Shown here piece after piece: positions 1,464 through 30,210 of a DNA stretch of 36,921 nucleotides (its first letter is position 1; every line of letters begins with the position of its first letter). Location of the stretch: positions 1 through 36,921 of the IMG/VR virus record IMGVR_UViG_2531839667_000014. One strand, 5' to 3'. A program made the translations under genes and the position numbers. Origin of the DNA: a virus. Taxonomy: Duplodnaviria; Heunggongvirae; Uroviricota; Caudoviricetes. Below the pieces are notes generated by a model, which was given only the letters and a program-made list of their open reading frames with translations, did not search any database and was not told the DNA's origin.

Positions 1464-4400
1464 TCAACGAATACTGATGCCGGAAGCCGCTTTTTTGGTC
1501 ACAATCACCGTACAGTCGGTGATATTGCCTGCCCCCTGATTGCCTTTCTGGAAAATCTTAAACTCCAGAGTGACGCTACCACCACCACTAGGCATATCAA
1601 TAACTGCACTGTAACTACCGGGAATGGCCCCTTTAGTTTCTCTGGATGCGATTAATACACCGTTTTTGCGAACTTCAAAACCATAACCCGTGTAACTTGT
1701 ACCTCCCGGGTTATTACCACTTCCCGGATAGCTATACGCTATTCCGTTAAAGATAATGGGCGGAATAATGATTTGACGGTCAAAGTTATGATCATCGCTG
1801 ATGGTGACTGTAACCGTCCCGTTTGGTGTTTCCGTGTTACCCCACGTACCAGCCTGTTTCGGGAATGATTTGGATACAGCTTTAACGAAGTCACCTCTGA
1901 CCTGAGTCGCCTCCAGCATGCCCTTAATCGTACAGTTTTCATTTACCGTGACGTTGTTGAGCGTCCCGGAGTTCGCATTCACACTGCCACTGATATCCGC
2001 ATTTTTAGCGGTCAGCTTTCCGTCTGATGTCAGGGAAAATACCGGAGGACTGCCACCACTGGTAATGGTGGGAGCCGTCAGGCGCTTCAGGAACACGTCG
2101 TTCATGAATATCTGATTGCCCTGCGCCACAAACATCGGCGTTTCATTCCCGTTTGCCGGGTCAATAAACGCGATACGGTTAGCGGCAACCAGAAACTGGC
2201 TCAGCTTGCCTTCTTCCGTGTCCTCCATGCTGAGGCCAATACCCGCGACATAATGTTTGCCGTCTTTGGTCTGCTCAATTTTGACGCCCCACATGGCATT
2301 CCATTTATCGTTAGCGTCCTTCCACTCTTTCGAAAACTCCTCCAGTCTGCTGGCGTTATCCTCCGTCAGATCGACTTTTTCCAGCAGCTCCTTGCCGAGA
2401 TGAGATTCGGTTATCTTGCCTTTGAAAAAATCCAGGTAACCTTCCGCATCATCGCTCGCCCGACCGACGGCCTCCACGAATGCCGATTTGCCAACGGTGT
2501 TCACACTGCGAACATAAAAGTAATAATCATGGCCCGGTTTGATATTGATACTGGCGGCTATCCAGTACAGCCCCGTGCCAAGGTAGCGGGCTGTGGTTTC
2601 AACCTGCCTGATATCGGTAATCCGCGTTTCCGAGAACCAGAACTCAAACTGTACCGTCGGATCATAAACCGCAAGATGCGGCGTGGCAGTTATCTGAAAA
2701 TAGCCCGGCGTCAGCTCAATCTGTGACGGCGCTGCCGGTGCGGCAATCCGGAACGATACCGACGCCGGATCGCCCTGCTGTCCCCGGGCATTTACCGCCC
2801 GGACTGTCAGCGTGTAACGCCCCAACGCCAGCTGCCTGAAGCGGTATGTGGTTTCCGTCGTCCGGGCCGTGCTGACCAGCCGCTCACTGCCGTCATCCGC
2901 TGCCACGGTCAGGCGAAGCATAAAGCTCCCCCCCTTCACCACCTTCGGCGTGTCCCAGCGCGCCAGCACCTGGTATTCCCCGCTGTCTGCGGTGACTTCT
3001 GCGGTCAGGTGCTGCACTGCTGGCGGCGTGACACCATTCACCGTGCCGCTCTGGTCGCCGTCAAAGTGCGCCCCGTTATCCACGATGGCCTCTTTCTCCG
3101 GCACATGCTGCACAGCGGTGATGGCATACGTGCCGTCGTCATTCTCACGGATACTCACGCAGCGGAACAGGCGCTGGCGCAGCGTCGGCAGCTTCAGCCC
3201 CCATACGCTGTATTCAGCAACACCGTCAGGAACACGGCTCACTTTTACCTTCACGCCGTCGGTGACGGACTGAACCTCCACGCTGACCGGATTGCCACTT
3301 CCGTCAACCAGGCTTATCAGCGTGGTACCGGAGGATGGCAGCGTGATTTCACGGTCGAGCGTCAGCGTCCGGGTCTGGCTGTTCACCGCCAGCACACGAC
3401 CACCGGTGCTGATACCGGCATAGTCATCATCACAGATTTCAATGACATCGCCCGGCACATGGCGAAGCCCTTCTGCGCCCACGCAGAAGTCCACGGTCTG
3501 CGTTTCCAGCAGTTCTGTTTTAATCAGCCACAGCCCGGCGCGGTGTGCCTGCCCCCGGCTGGTACAGCCAAAAGCATCCATCTTCGTGACGTTACGACCG
3601 TAACGGGCAATGGCCTGCGTATCCTCCACAAGCTCTGTCGCCGTCTCCCAGCCGTTGTCCGGGTCAATCCAGTTCACCTCAACGGCATTATGGCGGTCTT
3701 TCAGGGCGCTGAAGCTGTAGCGGAACGGCGCGCCATCATCCGGCATCACCACATTACTGCGGTTATAGGTCCACACCTTATCCGACGGTCGGTCCTGCAC
3801 GAACGTCAGCGTCTGCCCGTTCCATACCGGCATACAGCGCATCGCCGAGCAGAAATCACTGAGCACATCCCACGCCTTGCGCTGTGTGGTCAGGTACGCA
3901 TTACAGGTGATGCGCGGCTCCGTGCCGCCAAAGCCGTCCGGCACTGACTGGTCGCAGTACTGGCCGATGACATACAGCGCCCATTTGTCCACATCCGCCG
4001 CACCAAGACGTTTCCCCATGCCGTAGCGTGGATGGGTCAGCATATCCCACAGACACCAGGCCATGTTATTGCTGTATGCTGGCTTAAACGTTCCGTCCCA
4101 GATACCGCTGTATTGCCGCGTCTGCGGGTTATAGTTCGACGGCACCTGCAGAATACGCCCGCGCAGATGATAATTACGGCTCACCTGCTGGCTGCCGAAC
4201 TGCTCCGAATCCACCTGTACGCCGACCAGTGCCGTGTTCGGGTAGCACTGTTTCACATCGATGATTTCGGTGTATGACGACCAGAGCGTTTTGTTCTGCA
4301 GCTGGTCTGTGGTGCTGTCCGGCGTCATCCTGCGCATCCGGATATTGAACGGGCGCGGCGGCAGGTTACCCACCACCACCGATGCCAGATACTGTGAGGT

Positions 4401-22802: not shown

Positions 22803-23009
22803 GAAATTGGATCTACAGTCAGGAAAGCACTCTATCCAACAAACCACCCACAGTTAATCGGAATAAAAGCAGAGCGCTTATGAATGATCGCCTGCCCGAA
22901 GGTTAGTATTTCTGCACAGCAATTTTGCAAAAAAAAGCGATCATTCATAACTTAAACGTCTTTCAGTCACTCCGGGCTTTCCCATCATCGCAGACTGAAA
23001 GACTCTAAC

Positions 23010-23084
<75 letters not shown>

Positions 23085-23087
23085 ATA

Positions 23088-23163
<76 letters not shown>

Positions 23164-23351
23164 ATTGGTTCTTCGGGTGTGAATGAGATGCCCGGATACA
23201 TAATTTACCCTTCCCTCGGAACCGCAGAGATAATACAAATAAATAACCAGAATTCAATATTTGCTTATTCGTCTGTCGAAAAATCCAGCAAGATGAAAGA
23301 ACCGTATTCGCAACCACCAGCGTGTTTAATGTACCGTACCGCTTTTCAGGC

Positions 23352-26467: not shown

Positions 26468-26494
26468 GAAAAACAAAACCCGCCGAAGCGGGTT
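26468..26494 (-). terminator. rho-independent terminator at the 3' end of the hok transcript
   Basis: Minus-strand AACCCGC-ttcg-GCGGGTT followed by TTGTTTTTC. Confidence 0.6.
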
Positions 26495-26562
26495 AAGTGC
26501 GGGTGCGTTGAGGATGCCTGACACATCAGAGGTGGCGAGGGATTTCTCCCCCGCCGGGTCTC

Positions 26563-26718
26563 TTACTCCTCAGGTTCGTAAGCTGTGAAGACAGCGACCT
26601 CCGTCTGTCCGGTTCGGATTCGTACCTCGCAGAGGTCTTTCCTCGTTACCAGTGCCGTCACAATGACGGTTAAACAGATGACGATCAGGGCGATTAGCAT
26701 CGCCTTTTGCTGCTTCAT
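26563..26718 (-). CDS. hok: Hok-family type I toxin (HokD/RelF-like)
   Basis: 51 aa MKQQKAMLIALIVICLTVIVTALVTRKDLCEVRIRTGQTEVAVFTAYEPEE; single TM helix; AAGGAG RBS; the track ORF is extended in frame by 19 codons. Confidence 0.9.
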   Translation of the reverse strand: MKQQKAMLIALIVICLTVIVTALVTRKDLCEVRIRTGQTEVAVFTAYEPEE

Positions 26719-27007
26719 AGCCTGCTTCTCCTTGCCTTTCGGCACGTAAGAGGCTAACCTACGTGTGCAAGTCATAGATATGGCCTCAGATTAATGTTAA
26801 GCGTCTTGCAGGACGCGTAATGTTAACTGGGGCTTTCTCTGCCTGCCTTACAGTGGCATGCCCGAGGCAGACAGCCTCAAGCACCCGCAGCAATTCTACT
26901 TAACTATCTTTCTCCCGCAAATCGTTTTTATCCCCAGCGGCAAATCGAATACACAACCAGTGCTACCGCCATTGCAATTCCTACTGTTGTGAATGCCTCA
27001 GGCCAGG

Positions 27008-27700
27008 TCATCGTAAAACATCCTCCACGCCTATCAACCCGTTCCGCTCCAGATAGCCCATCGCATTATCTGGCAATTTGCAGTCCGGTTTCGATTTCTT
27101 CAGTTGGCTGACTAATTGCTTCACCAGCATTGTCAATTCGATAACCTGTTTGCCTGATGTTCGCTCACTACAGCTTATCCAATCATCCGGAGTTGCCGGG
27201 GAGCTGGTTGACGAATTCTTATTTTCCCGAAAGTTTCCGGCCTGAAACATAGCGGCGCGGTGACACCAGATAATCCAGCCAATCGCCATATCCCATGCCA
27301 TGTATTCGCTACCGCCATTTTTTGCCCTGCGGCGATCAACAGAATCCCCGAAATGCTTCTCCATAAATAACTCATAGGCAGCCCGTTCATCCGGCACCAC
27401 CAGCATTGGCGGCGTGGCGTATAGCTTACGGGTCTGAACACCTGCCCCCTGGCATTTCTCTTCCTCAACAAATCTTTCGAAAGCATATTCCCCGCAATCT
27501 TCCCATTCTCCCCATTCATCATATTCTGCATCCCACTGGCGATACTGATATGCCACTGGCTCTGCTTCCAGCGATGCCAGAGCAATACGAAACACATTGG
27601 CAAGCAGGCTGTTTGAAGATTGGTTATCGTGCGCCGAATCGCTCAGAAAACCAGTGATGAATGATTTAATCTCCGCGCTTTCTCTGGTAATAGTGGTCAT
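27008..27700 (-). CDS. hypothetical protein, acidic Trp-rich N-half and basic C-terminus
   Basis: 230-aa ORF tightly packed with neighbours; no recognisable family. Confidence 0.5.
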   Translation of the reverse strand: MTTITRESAEIKSFITGFLSDSAHDNQSSNSLLANVFRIALASLEAEPVAYQYRQWDAEYDEWGEWEDCGEYAFERFVEEEKCQGAGVQTRKLYATPPMLVVPDERAAYELFMEKHFGDSVDRRRAKNGGSEYMAWDMAIGWIIWCHRAAMFQAGNFRENKNSSTSSPATPDDWISCSERTSGKQVIELTMLVKQLVSQLKKSKPDCKLPDNAMGYLERNGLIGVEDVLR

Positions 27701-27701
27701 A

Positions 27702-27905
27702 TCACTCTCCTTTAGTGCGCAAGTGGTTTTTCCAGCGGTTTTTCGCCGCGCTGGGCTTTTTAAGGGAACACATCACAATATCAGCTGTGTTTGTGAACAA
27801 GCCCATTCTGCGGTTACTGAGTTTTAACCATTGCTGGACGCCGCGAGCATTTCTACAGGTCAAAAGAATTTTTGCTTTACGGTTTTTCATTGTTTTGCTC
27901 TCCAA
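27702..27905 (-). CDS. hypothetical small basic protein
   Basis: 67 aa, Lys/Arg-rich; stop abuts the start of the 230-aa gene. Confidence 0.4.
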   Translation of the reverse strand: MESKTMKNRKAKILLTCRNARGVQQWLKLSNRRMGLFTNTADIVMCSLKKPSAAKNRWKNHLRTKGE

Positions 27906-27919
27906 TTGATTCAGCCATT

Positions 27920-28093
27920 TTATTCTTCCTCTTCATCTTTTATTTCGTGGTATGCGTAATTGCAGTAGTTAAAGAAAATATCTTTAGCTTCGTCATAAAC
28001 TTCATCAGGTGTCGCGTCATCGCCCACTTCGAATACATCCTCAAAATCTCCACCAGCTATTCCCGTTTCAATAATTATTTTGAACTTTCGCAT
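27920..28093 (-). CDS. hypothetical small acidic protein
   Basis: Manually found ORF (below the track threshold): MRKFKIIIETGIAGGDFEDVFEVGDDATPDEVYDEAKDIFFNYCNYAYHEIKDEEEE, 57 aa, strongly acidic. Confidence 0.4.
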   Translation of the reverse strand: MRKFKIIIETGIAGGDFEDVFEVGDDATPDEVYDEAKDIFFNYCNYAYHEIKDEEEE

Positions 28094-28188
28094 TTCACTA
28101 CCGCCCTTTCGGACGGCCTCCTGATGTATTGAGGTTGCAGGAATCCCTCCGGTTAAGGATTAAATTTTATTTACAGTGCTAAATTTAA

Positions 28189-28803
28189 TTATTCTGGAGC
28201 GCGAAGCTGTTCCGCACAATGCAGCAGCGCATCCGTTGCTTCATTAAGCGTTACGGTATCGGCATCATCCAACCCTGCAACTTTTGCGTGCCTGACAAAC
28301 GCCGCGCAAAGGTCGTTAAACGCCAACGCCCGCACTTCAGCCAGAAAAACATCGGTGGCCGGGGTGGGCTTTTGTGGTGATATAGCAATACGAATTGTTT
28401 CAAGCCCCGATTTTGTTTTCATTGCTGGCGCTTTGATATGCCCAAGTTGCACCACATTCATGATAAACCTGCGACGGTCATCACATATCGCCTTCACCTC
28501 TGCATTCTCCGCCGCCAGCGCCACAAGATTAGCCTCCAACTCTCCTATATGCTTGTTTTGGGCTTCCCGCTCATCCAGCAGCGCCTGCACTACTGCAGGG
28601 TTGAAAGCTGCGATATAACGAGCGTTGTTCTCTGCGTTTTTCTGTCCGTCAAAACCGGGCCATTTGATAACGTCTTCACATCGTTTATCACCGGGCGTAT
28701 GCACCGCATACGTACCAGTACCCGTCGAAATAAATGCGCCCCATTCGCCCTGTGTTGCCTGTTTTGCTATCTCACGTAGTACCTGATGGTTAATTTCACT
28801 CAC
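28189..28803 (-). CDS. Ead/Ea22-like protein
   Basis: Track ORF trimmed to a GTG start with a GGAGGTG RBS that overlaps the upstream stop (GTGA); contains ...NARYIAAFNPAVVQALLDEREAQ... plus coiled coil, reminiscent of Ea22-like proteins. Confidence 0.5.
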   Translation of the reverse strand: MSEINHQVLREIAKQATQGEWGAFISTGTGTYAVHTPGDKRCEDVIKWPGFDGQKNAENNARYIAAFNPAVVQALLDEREAQNKHIGELEANLVALAAENAEVKAICDDRRRFIMNVVQLGHIKAPAMKTKSGLETIRIAISPQKPTPATDVFLAEVRALAFNDLCAAFVRHAKVAGLDDADTVTLNEATDALLHCAEQLRAPE

Positions 28804-29222
28804 GATAACACCTCCTGAAATTTCCCCTGATAAAACGCCAGCACACGCTGCATAGCTTCGCTCTTCCGGCACTCACGACAGATTATGTTCATACGCCTGT
28901 CGTAGCGGCGTATTTCTCCATCTTGTAACGACCGGATAAGACCCGGATCAACCACAGCAGGTTTCTTCACCTTTGCCCTTGATAGTTTTTTACGGGTGTT
29001 TTGCCAGTCCTTGCGAGCCTGTTCAGACGGAAATAACCCGTAGCCAGAATTGTATACATCACCACTGGCAACCAGCTCTCTGGCAAGAACGCTCATCAGA
29101 TATCTTGTCGTACCTGTCTTGGCTTCCAGTTGTCGTAACGTCTCGCGCCCACTCTGGCGCACGAGTTCAACAACCTGCCCCTTAATTTTTTCCCGCTCTT
29201 CTTGTGTAAAAACTTTTGCCAC
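28800..29222 (-). CDS. hypothetical protein with N-terminal helix-turn-helix
   Basis: 140 aa; HTH-like segment RETLRQLEAKTGTTRYLMSVLARELV; C-terminal CxxC. Confidence 0.5.
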   Translation of the reverse strand: MAKVFTQEEREKIKGQVVELVRQSGRETLRQLEAKTGTTRYLMSVLARELVASGDVYNSGYGLFPSEQARKDWQNTRKKLSRAKVKKPAVVDPGLIRSLQDGEIRRYDRRMNIICRECRKSEAMQRVLAFYQGKFQEVLS

Positions 29223-29262: not shown

Positions 29263-30210
29263 TTACCCTCTGAACCCAGGTGGAATTTCGGTATCCGGTT
29301 CAGAAATATGATTCACACAACGCTGTATTGGCGAACGCCCCAAGCGAATAACCAGCTCATCCCATTTTTCGCGAAGCTTTGACGGGCTCATGATGTTTTT
29401 TACCCAGAATGGATCCCGCTGTACCCGACCAAACATTTCACAAATTTGTCTGTGAGTTCTGCCATCCAGCATCCGCATTGTGCGCACATCATTGGCCCAT
29501 GCGGTCCAGTTTGGTTCTTTCGGTCGCATGATTTCGCCATCATCGCTGGCAGCCTGCTCGTAAAGACTCACGATTCGTCCCCAGATCCACTGCGCACACG
29601 CCAAATCTTCCTGGCTACCCCACTGGCGTTTTTTCGCACTGAACACAACCGCGTCAGGGTGTCGGGTTAAAAAATCCTGTTCAGCCGTCTGCGGCTCCGG
29701 TTGCGAAGCGTCCGGACAAGAAGATCTTTTATCTGACGGATCAGGTTTTAATACTGACGGATCGGGGCCAACCATCGCCCCCCTAACCGGATGTTTTTTA
29801 TCAACGGTTGATCCATCAAAATTTGACGGGTCAACCGTTGAGGGGTCAATGTTTGACGGGTCATTTTTTACCTGGTTAATTTTTCTTTTCGGTTTATATG
29901 CCTCACGCGCCGCCGCTGCTGCTGCTTCGAGTTTTTCCACATTAAGACGGTAGATATTGCTTTCATTACGCCCACCGACCTTACGTTCCTCCTTCGTCAG
30001 CCAGCCGTTCTTTTCCAGTTCTGCTATCGCAGCTTTAACCGTTGATTCACTCTTTGCCCCAATCTGACGACGAATGGTCTCCACTGCAGGCCATGACACA
30101 CCTTCGTCATTGCTGTAATCTGCAAGGCGAGCCATTACTGCCACCCTGGATAAGATCATGCCGGTGAAGGCACACCCTTCCCAGACAAGACCATGAAGCT
30201 TGCTGCTCAT
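29263..30210 (-). CDS. replication initiation protein (O-like, N-terminal winged-helix domain)
   Basis: 315 aa; N-terminal DNA-binding domain ...SWPAVETIRRQIGAKSESTVKAAIAELEKNGWL...; the linker is encoded by the iteron cluster; position downstream of cro-like and YdaT-like genes. Confidence 0.65.
   Translation of the reverse strand: MSSKLHGLVWEGCAFTGMILSRVAVMARLADYSNDEGVSWPAVETIRRQIGAKSESTVKAAIAELEKNGWLTKEERKVGGRNESNIYRLNVEKLEAAAAAAREAYKPKRKINQVKNDPSNIDPSTVDPSNFDGSTVDKKHPVRGAMVGPDPSVLKPDPSDKRSSCPDASQPEPQTAEQDFLTRHPDAVVFSAKKRQWGSQEDLACAQWIWGRIVSLYEQAASDDGEIMRPKEPNWTAWANDVRTMRMLDGRTHRQICEMFGRVQRDPFWVKNIMSPSKLREKWDELVIRLGRSPIQRCVNHISEPDTEIPPGFRG
29734..29900. repeat. candidate origin of replication: iteron cluster plus AT-rich tract inside the initiator gene
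   Basis: 9-mer TGACGGATC/TGACGGGTC at 29734, 29755, 29824 and 29854, an inverted near-copy at 29810, an inverted pair TCAACGGTTGA/TCAACCGTTGA, then a T/A-rich stretch at 29863..29900. Confidence 0.55.

Follow-up and report, generated by a model that had tools for sequence, protein, structure and literature searches.

Three independently assorting accessory genes between ead and hok in a lambdoid prophage of Escherichia coli

We analysed three adjacent genes, called here genes C, B and A in their order along the minus strand, at positions 27,008 to 28,093 of the IMG/VR virus record IMGVR_UViG_2531839667_000014 (Caudoviricetes). The whole stretch of 36,921 nucleotides (nt) is referred to as the window; it comes from the chromosome (NZ_CP090611.1) of E. 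coli DCE7, a pig-lung strain, and belongs to a Qin/Rac-like lambdoid prophage. The three genes assort independently of one another in other prophages. The best explanation of the locus as a whole, which we consider probable on balance, is that C, B and A are three independent accessory cassettes and not a unit, with the separate roles that we propose in the last section. The three genes, with the basis of each assignment, are as follows.

27920-28093, minus strand: gene C, 57 amino acids (aa), acidic, DUF7167 / phrog_1997, WP_001224678 (open reading frame [ORF], Pfam, PHROG)
27702-27890, minus strand: gene B, 62 aa, very basic, phrog_1380, WP_001346428 (ORF, RefSeq start, PHROG)
27008-27700, minus strand: gene A, 230 aa, mosaic, phrog_660, WP_000208146 (ORF, PHROG, module alignment, DNA mosaic)

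Independent assortment of genes C, B and A

We sampled 80 viral contigs from IMG/VR with a relative of gene B and 80 with a relative of gene C. The trio was present at one of the 80 gene B loci, on a contig identical to the window, and gene B was present at one of the 80 gene C loci. An earlier note on this DNA had treated the three genes as a cluster and had proposed examining their co-occurrence in other prophages; on these two sets of contigs the genes assort independently, and joint action of the cluster, with the trio at 1 of 80 loci in either set, was not borne out. The usual order at gene C loci was the DUF7167 gene, another acidic ORF of 58 aa (62 of 80 loci), a gene with the C-terminal module (C-module) of gene A (65 of 80) and hok (61 of 80).

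The genes also differed in prevalence. Among 5,426 complete E. coli genomes, 1,781 had a match to gene C and 353 a match to gene B, with many of the gene B copies on P1-like plasmids, while pieces of gene A were found in 862 and its full-length mosaic in 1. In other lambdoid, P22-like and P1-like phages, relatives of genes B and C lay either in the early-left (exo-xis/ea) part or in nin-type regions. The exact proteins A, B and C each occurred on 48 to 62 contigs in a wider protein collection, which fits one prophage lineage, and all sources in that collection label them hypothetical or DUF7167. E. coli TUM9812, which was fetched separately, has genes C and B, separated by an additional ORF, and a 175-aa form of gene A. 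The suggestion in the earlier note that the genes fill an accessory slot was partly upheld: the genes are accessory and uncharacterised, and the early slot that they occupy is hypervariable, but no anti-defence or exclusion role could be shown.

A competing explanation is that the three genes form one module, either anti-defence or toxin/antidote, in which gene C neutralises gene B and gene A acts as effector or sensor. The genes are tightly packed on one strand, with the gene B stop codon 1 nt ahead of the gene A ATG, and the products of genes B and C have opposite net charges (+14 versus -13). The occurrence of each exact allele on 48 to 62 contigs, which fits a shared lineage, and the order C, B, short A that TUM9812 keeps, albeit with its extra ORF, are also consistent with a module. 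However, gene B stood without C and A at 79 of the 80 IMG/VR loci, gene C normally precedes the other acidic 58-aa ORF and not gene B, and the prevalence of C and B differs about five-fold. As a co-inherited system the trio lacked consistent co-occurrence and order, and PADLOC gave no match. We therefore regard a single module as highly improbable and treat the genes below as separate cassettes.

Coding evidence and families of genes C and B

The three ORFs described in the earlier note are present on the minus strand at the positions it gave, and RefSeq annotates all of them in NZ_CP090611.1, each as a hypothetical protein. Their placement between the Ea22-like gene and hok, on one strand, also agrees with the RefSeq annotation. 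The middle ORF had been reported as a 67-aa basic protein, and an ORF of this length (27702-27905, with a TTG start at 27905) exists, but its start is most likely not the true one. The ATG at 27890 has GGAG 9 nt upstream, while TTG 27905 has no Shine-Dalgarno sequence; relatives of gene B begin at MKNRKAK, and the RefSeq start in the source genome is ATG 27890. For these reasons we read gene B from ATG 27890 as most likely, giving 62 aa. In this version the protein has an isoelectric point (pI) of 11.7 and a net charge of +14, in agreement with the description of the middle protein as highly basic.

The statement that these genes match nothing did not stand, since gene C belongs to Pfam DUF7167 and each of the three has a PHROG family, of unknown function in every case. 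Searches of NCBIfam, PADLOC and PDB sequences with all three proteins gave no match, and across Pfam, PHROG, NCBIfam, PDB and PADLOC none of the ORFs showed homology to a housekeeping-type phage protein. The Rac prophage of MG1655 has no homologue of genes A, B or C, so no K-12 gene name is applicable. A literature search on DUF7167, the PHROG numbers and the RefSeq accessions found nothing, and the passages covered in the exo-xis papers do not mention these ORFs.

The earlier note had allowed that the small ORFs might not be translated. An excess of variation at third codon positions, together with the lowest ratio of nonsynonymous to synonymous polymorphism (pN/pS) in the annotated frame, argues that they are coding. 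Among 25 distinct alleles of gene C, variable sites at the three codon positions numbered 5/3/26, and mean pN was 0.037 versus a pS of 0.25 in the annotated frame (pN/pS of ~0.15), with the other two frames unbiased. For gene B the corresponding counts were 17/15/33, and pN/pS between the two main alleles was 0.39, the lowest among six frames. The last 48 codons of gene A gave pN/pS values of 0.14 to 0.28 versus most relatives. Judged on this evolutionary evidence, all three are real protein-coding genes; the evidence of selection on gene B is modest and weaker than that for gene C. A hairpin overlapping the gene C ribosome-binding site was not significant (z of -1.27).

Gene C aligned with the DUF7167 profile (PF23768) over residues 2-53 and profile positions 1-60 of 60, above the gathering threshold (expectation value [E] of 1.8e-11; 44.4 bits against a cutoff of 24.4). 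By this match gene C is a full-length DUF7167 member; it also falls in phrog_1997. A profile search of 1.8 billion representative proteins gave 159 family representatives, nearly all of 50-60 aa and acidic, and an alignment of 62 members defined the core M-R/K-K-x-x-V-x-I-E-T...F-E-V-x-D-D-A-T-x-E-E-I-E-x-x-A...F-N. Gene C has the features of this family, as a single acidic domain of ~55-60 aa with the FEV-x-DDAT-x-EEI core. The allele in the window is a minority variant that is 91% identical to the common E. coli allele and lacks its usual C-terminal QNG. A few members are tandem duplications or fusions; the fusions with DUF7446, YopX and a helix-turn-helix were considered as a lead and set aside, since they gave no functional clue and may be read-through gene calls. 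Relatives found by tblastn were in a Klebsiella lambdoid phage (68% identity), Klebsiella Guernseyvirinae, a Pseudomonas phage, a 150-kb Escherichia phage and ~36 lytic Enterococcus Herelleviridae, and in each case examined the distant relatives lay among small hypothetical genes of early regions. This wide host range would suggest a broadly conserved target.

In most prophages, a second acidic ORF of 58 aa (MADFGSTKYNVSFEEWHELLMDYAELRGG...CDEWGDE; pI of 4.05) follows the DUF7167 gene at a distance of ~10-180 nt (e.g., L128:3180-3350, among the fetched loci). It has no Pfam family, and the window has the basic gene B in its place.

The description of the 57-aa protein as strongly acidic was confirmed, with a pI of 4.05, a net charge of -13 and an acidic C-terminal tail. 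The AlphaFold2 model of gene C has a predicted local distance difference test score (pLDDT) of 75, with strands at residues 2-9 and 16-23, a helix at 29-40 and a strand at 46-51. This moderately confident model predicts an acidic beta-beta-alpha-beta fold. A Foldseek search of BFVD with the model returned only uncharacterised phage proteins (best E of 0.012).

The acidity of gene C, its early-region location in many phages and the wide host range of DUF7167, which fits a widespread target, would also be expected if gene C were an anti-restriction protein that, like Ocr and ArdA, mimics DNA and blocks type I restriction-modification enzymes. However, the Pfam scan of gene C gave DUF7167 only and no anti-restriction family, a profile search of the PDB gave nothing meaningful and no Ocr/ArdA match, and no DNA mimic matched its model significantly in structure. 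Ocr and ArdA far exceed gene C in size and differ from it in architecture, whereas the predicted fold of gene C is a compact beta-beta-alpha-beta unit. We consider a DNA mimic quite unlikely and favour a small inhibitor, as set out in the last section.

Gene B belongs to phrog_1380, of unknown function. It has no Pfam or NCBIfam family, and a profile search of the PDB with it gave nothing meaningful. Its relatives are confined to Escherichia, Salmonella and one Yersinia phage and include 933W L0068, VT2-Sakai H0078, Min27 ORF09, copies on P1-like phage-plasmids and one in the BASEL phage Bas106. In the neighbourhoods that were examined, these lay in ea/exo-xis or nin-type accessory regions, several of them downstream of an ead/Ea22-like gene. 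The termini of the protein are invariant (MKNRKAKILL at the N terminus and KPSAAQNRWKNHLRTKGE at the C terminus), and the centre occurs in several alleles, all equal in length and all basic. This high basic charge suggests nucleic-acid binding.

The gene A Shine-Dalgarno sequence, AAGGAG, lies within the last codons of gene B, and the boundary of the two genes is formed by a 16-nt sequence, which we call the inter-cassette joint.

27698-27713, minus strand: inter-cassette joint AAAGGAGAGTGATATG, comprising the last codons and stop of gene B, the Shine-Dalgarno sequence and the gene A ATG

The exact 16-mer recurred at other gene boundaries in the fetched loci (e.g., L003:4178-4193, L099:4191-4206 and L005:4898-4913), where it follows at least eight unrelated proteins, all ending in KGE, and precedes at least ten unrelated proteins. 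It looks like a shared joint between cassettes that serves translational coupling and possibly recombination through short homology. Lambdoid phages exchange small fragments through homology (PMC3945230), and the shared joint fits this published mode of exchange. Since the 3' end of gene B holds the ribosome-binding site of the next gene and abuts its start codon, translation of the two is probably coupled. The same joint bears on a gene call in 933W. The RefSeq GTG start of ST933Wp08 (L003:4119-4406) at 4119 overlaps an unannotated gene B homologue by 68 nt, and the in-frame ATG at 4191, directly after the joint, is the likelier start.

The recurrence of the joint raises the alternative that gene B is an open spacer and not a functional protein gene, its ends being a recombination joint and the ribosome-binding site of the next gene. 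The first ~50 nt and last ~65 nt of gene B alleles are essentially identical at the DNA level, while their centres are about one-third diverged, and this pattern could reflect DNA-level constraint or recombination and not protein function. Moreover, a few copies are frameshifted in the centre (e.g., the relative P0239), RefSeq leaves the homologue unannotated in 933W and RCS47, and gene B lacks a Pfam or NCBIfam family. Against this, the ORF was intact over its full length in 78 fetched loci that cover both main alleles, and the third-position excess and the low pN/pS were those of the annotated frame. Gene B also has its own Shine-Dalgarno sequence and ATG, and its alleles keep their length and basic character. 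A spacer is therefore unlikely, and gene B is better read as a protein gene. A structured RNA was ruled out, as the fold z-score of the gene B region was 0.19, with no signal of structure, and there was no Rfam match within 27000-28100.

Mosaic structure of gene A and neighbouring features

Gene A belongs to phrog_660 and has partial matches to phrog_60, 924 and 8171, of which phrog_60 and phrog_8171 are common to it and the neighbouring Ea22-like protein. Alignment divided the protein into five segments.

27551-27700, minus strand: N-module, aa 1-50 (MTTITRES...ALASLEAEP), predicted helical; nearly invariant in hundreds of E. coli prophage proteins
27394-27561, minus strand: acidic Trp-containing insert, aa ~47-102, net charge -7 (blastn gap versus TUM9812; alignment)
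27233-27393, minus strand: helical module, aa 103-156 (ERAAYELFMEK...WCHRAAMFQ) (alignment, model)
aa 157-182: low-complexity linker (alignment)
27011-27154, minus strand: C-module, aa 183-230, at the place where the closest relatives, P0002 and P0003, carry DUF551

Comparison at the DNA level showed how these segments were joined. Over its first 541 nt, gene A matches a DUF551-type gene of E. coli A3 with 96.3% identity, and this identity starts exactly at the gene A ATG and ends at window position 27160. Gene B and gene A codons 1-46 are 94.7% identical to the 175-aa type of TUM9812, as are codons 103-230 and the downstream DNA at 91.4%; the TUM9812 type lacks the 168-nt insert (27394-27561), a piece that DUF551-type relatives carry but the common 175-aa form does not. 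Gene A is thus a clean three-piece intragenic recombinant of EaA/DUF551-type mosaic proteins.

The mosaic accounts for the composition of the protein, which the earlier note had described as an acidic, Trp-rich N-terminal half with a basic C terminus. The N-terminal half is acidic (residues 1-115; pI of 4.35; net charge of -12), but the C-terminal half is only mildly basic (residues 116-230; pI of 8.53; net charge of +2). Only the insert is Trp-rich, as the seven Trp residues divide into three in residues 1-115 and four in 116-230, and three lie within the acidic insert at 51-102. The contrast arose because recombination joined modules of different origin, and composition contrasts within such proteins should not be taken as functional design.

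The C-module occurs on varied N-terminal parts, in proteins of 171 aa and 152 aa and a minimal one of 114 aa. In a profile search of the PDB its first helix scored against designed antiparallel coiled coils, which suggests an oligomerising helix. Among the hok-proximal genes of the DUF7167 loci, the C-module lay as a rule directly upstream of the hok/sok locus.

Gene A might instead be a non-functional chimeric remnant of recombination between two prophage genes. Its junctions are cleanly recombinant, the exact mosaic is full length in only 1 of the 5,426 complete genomes, and its AlphaFold2 model (pLDDT of 46.5) is too poor to support a fold search. However, the reading frame is intact across all junctions, each module recurs in numerous intact proteins elsewhere, purifying selection acts on the C-module and the exact protein is on 62 contigs of the wider collection. 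Intragenic mosaics are also the norm for phage genes of this type (PMC3945230 and PMC10834534). A remnant is very unlikely, and we treat gene A as an intact mosaic gene.

On the minus strand, genes C, B and A are preceded by genes for a cro-like regulator, a YdaT-like protein, an O-like protein, a DUF977/Ren-like protein and the ead/Ea22-like protein, in that order. After gene A, on the same strand, come hokD with the sok region, two small ORFs, DUF968, RusA and the Q antiterminator. The neighbours with positions are listed here.

29263-30210, minus strand: O-like helix-turn-helix protein
28800-29222, minus strand: DUF977/Ren-like protein
28189-28803, minus strand: ead/Ea22-like upstream neighbour (Pfam PF13935, E of 1.4e-24; RefSeq)
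26563-26886, minus strand: downstream hokD toxin ORF with mok and the sok region (Pfam HOK_GEF; Rfam sok, 100 bits; RefSeq)

Three further features were noted in the window. Just downstream of hokD, 26473-26554 on the minus strand gave a sub-threshold Rfam match to the Hfq-binding small RNA IsrK (27 bits against a gathering threshold of 50; E of 0.004), with a hairpin resembling a terminator at its end (26494-26477). In the last codons of gene A, at 27010-27037 on the minus strand, a sigma-70-like promoter match (TTGATA, 16 nt, TACGAT) points towards hok/sok; it may be due to chance, and the scan gave fewer sites than expected from shuffles. Finally, RefSeq annotates genes for glycine and threonine transfer RNAs (tRNA-Gly and tRNA-Thr) between the Q antiterminator and the lysis genes, at ~23000-23170 (L001:5111-5264).

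Proposed roles and comparison with known phage proteins

We place the region within the delayed-early rightward (nin-type) operon of the prophage. Each of the three genes comes from a recurrent family, and recombination probably carries such families back and forth between early-left and early-right accessory regions in lambdoid, P22-like and P1-like phages. Our proposals for their molecular functions, as inhibitor, nucleic-acid binder and oligomeric adaptor, are made with low confidence. Our best guess for gene C is a small inhibitor of a nucleic-acid-binding protein. It would act stoichiometrically, as T7 Gp2, T4 Dmd or phi29 p56 do, by occupying a basic surface with which a protein of the host or of a competitor binds nucleic acid. 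Gene B would bind nucleic acid, with its translation coupled to that of the following gene. Gene A, by analogy with lambda Ea22, may be an adaptor and not an enzyme, forming oligomers and modulating phage development or host physiology.

Several observations weigh against these proposals, besides the identical ends, frameshifted copies and missing annotations of gene B and the poor model of gene A. The conserved residues of DUF7167, a hydrophobic core and a Thr-x-x-Glu helix cap, look structural and indicate no binding site. The coiled-coil match of gene A is to designed repeats and is compositional. A Pfam scan of gene A gave no family at an E of 0.01 or better, including Ead_Ea22 (PF13935) and DUF551 (PF04448), and we therefore file it only loosely with the Ea22/EaA/YfdS group. 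In that loose sense it belongs to the EaA/DUF551 type, with which it shares modules and a build of N-terminal segment, helical part and C-terminal domain.

The region is an ordinary mosaic patch of lambdoid "dark matter" made of families that are already catalogued. It illustrates how accessory genes are rebuilt, through the intragenic recombinant gene A and a 16-nt joint common to unrelated cassettes. DUF7167 alone merits follow-up: the family is small in size, extremely common, under strong purifying selection and entirely unstudied. A third of E. coli genomes contain it, as do lytic phages that infect Gram-positive hosts. It is possible, though on the doubtful side, that DUF7167 is an unrecognised and very widespread family of phage inhibitors directed at a conserved nucleic-acid enzyme or a common defence nuclease. 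If so, it would occupy a DNA- or RNA-binding groove and be a new counterpart of T7 Gp2, T4 Dmd and phi29 p56. Screening DUF7167 as a candidate inhibitor would be reasonable and inexpensive, especially since a BASEL phage has a gene B relative and other isolated phages have relatives of gene C.

The proteins to which gene C has a weak likeness in fold are T7 Gp2, an inhibitor of the host RNA polymerase, T4 Dmd, an antitoxin, and phi29/PZA p56, an inhibitor of uracil-DNA glycosylase, all small acidic phage inhibitors. The structural scores of the gene C model against Gp2, Dmd and p56 were not significant, and generic ferredoxin-like domains scored equally well; Foldseek against the PDB likewise gave nothing significant, with Gp2 and p56 again near the top of the list. 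Gene C has no sequence homology to Gp2: when the DUF7167 profile of 62 sequences was compared with T7 Gp2 by hhalign, the probability was 0.2% over 8 columns. This ruled out gene C as a Gp2 homologue and weighs against an inhibitor of this descent. Binding of Gp2 to the beta-prime jaw of the host RNA polymerase depends on Arg56 and Arg58 in strand 3, and strand 3 of gene C (YAYHEIK) has no arginine. Gene C thus at best works "like" Gp2, Dmd and p56 and belongs to none of their families; its likeness to DUF7167/phrog_1997 proteins extends to size, acidity and the FEV-x-DDAT-x-EEI motif.

For gene B the closest known proteins are the phrog_1380 members 933W L0068, VT2-Sakai H0078 and Min27 ORF09. 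These are basic, 62 aa long, 69% identical to gene B with the same termini, and like it downstream of an ead/Ea22-like gene. They differ in carrying another central allele, and phrog_1380 relatives are found in the early-left region of Shiga toxin (Stx) phages or on P1-like phage-plasmids.

The nearest known group for gene A is that of lambda Ea22, P22 EaA and E. coli YfdS, the last of which has stress phenotypes (PMC4776307). The first 180 residues of gene A are 96% DNA-identical to genes for proteins annotated as DUF551 domain-containing, whereas from residue ~181 a 48-aa helical C-module replaces DUF551; gene A also lies in the early-right region and not in the exo-xis region. A published study of Ea22 (PMC10834534) describes a pro-lysogenic effect, for Ea22 proper only. 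It presents Ea22 proteins as mosaics in which an N-terminal domain and a coiled coil are combined with one of several interchangeable C-terminal domains, DUF551 among the latter, and gene A has this same build of N-terminal segment, helical or coiled-coil part and exchangeable C-terminal domain.

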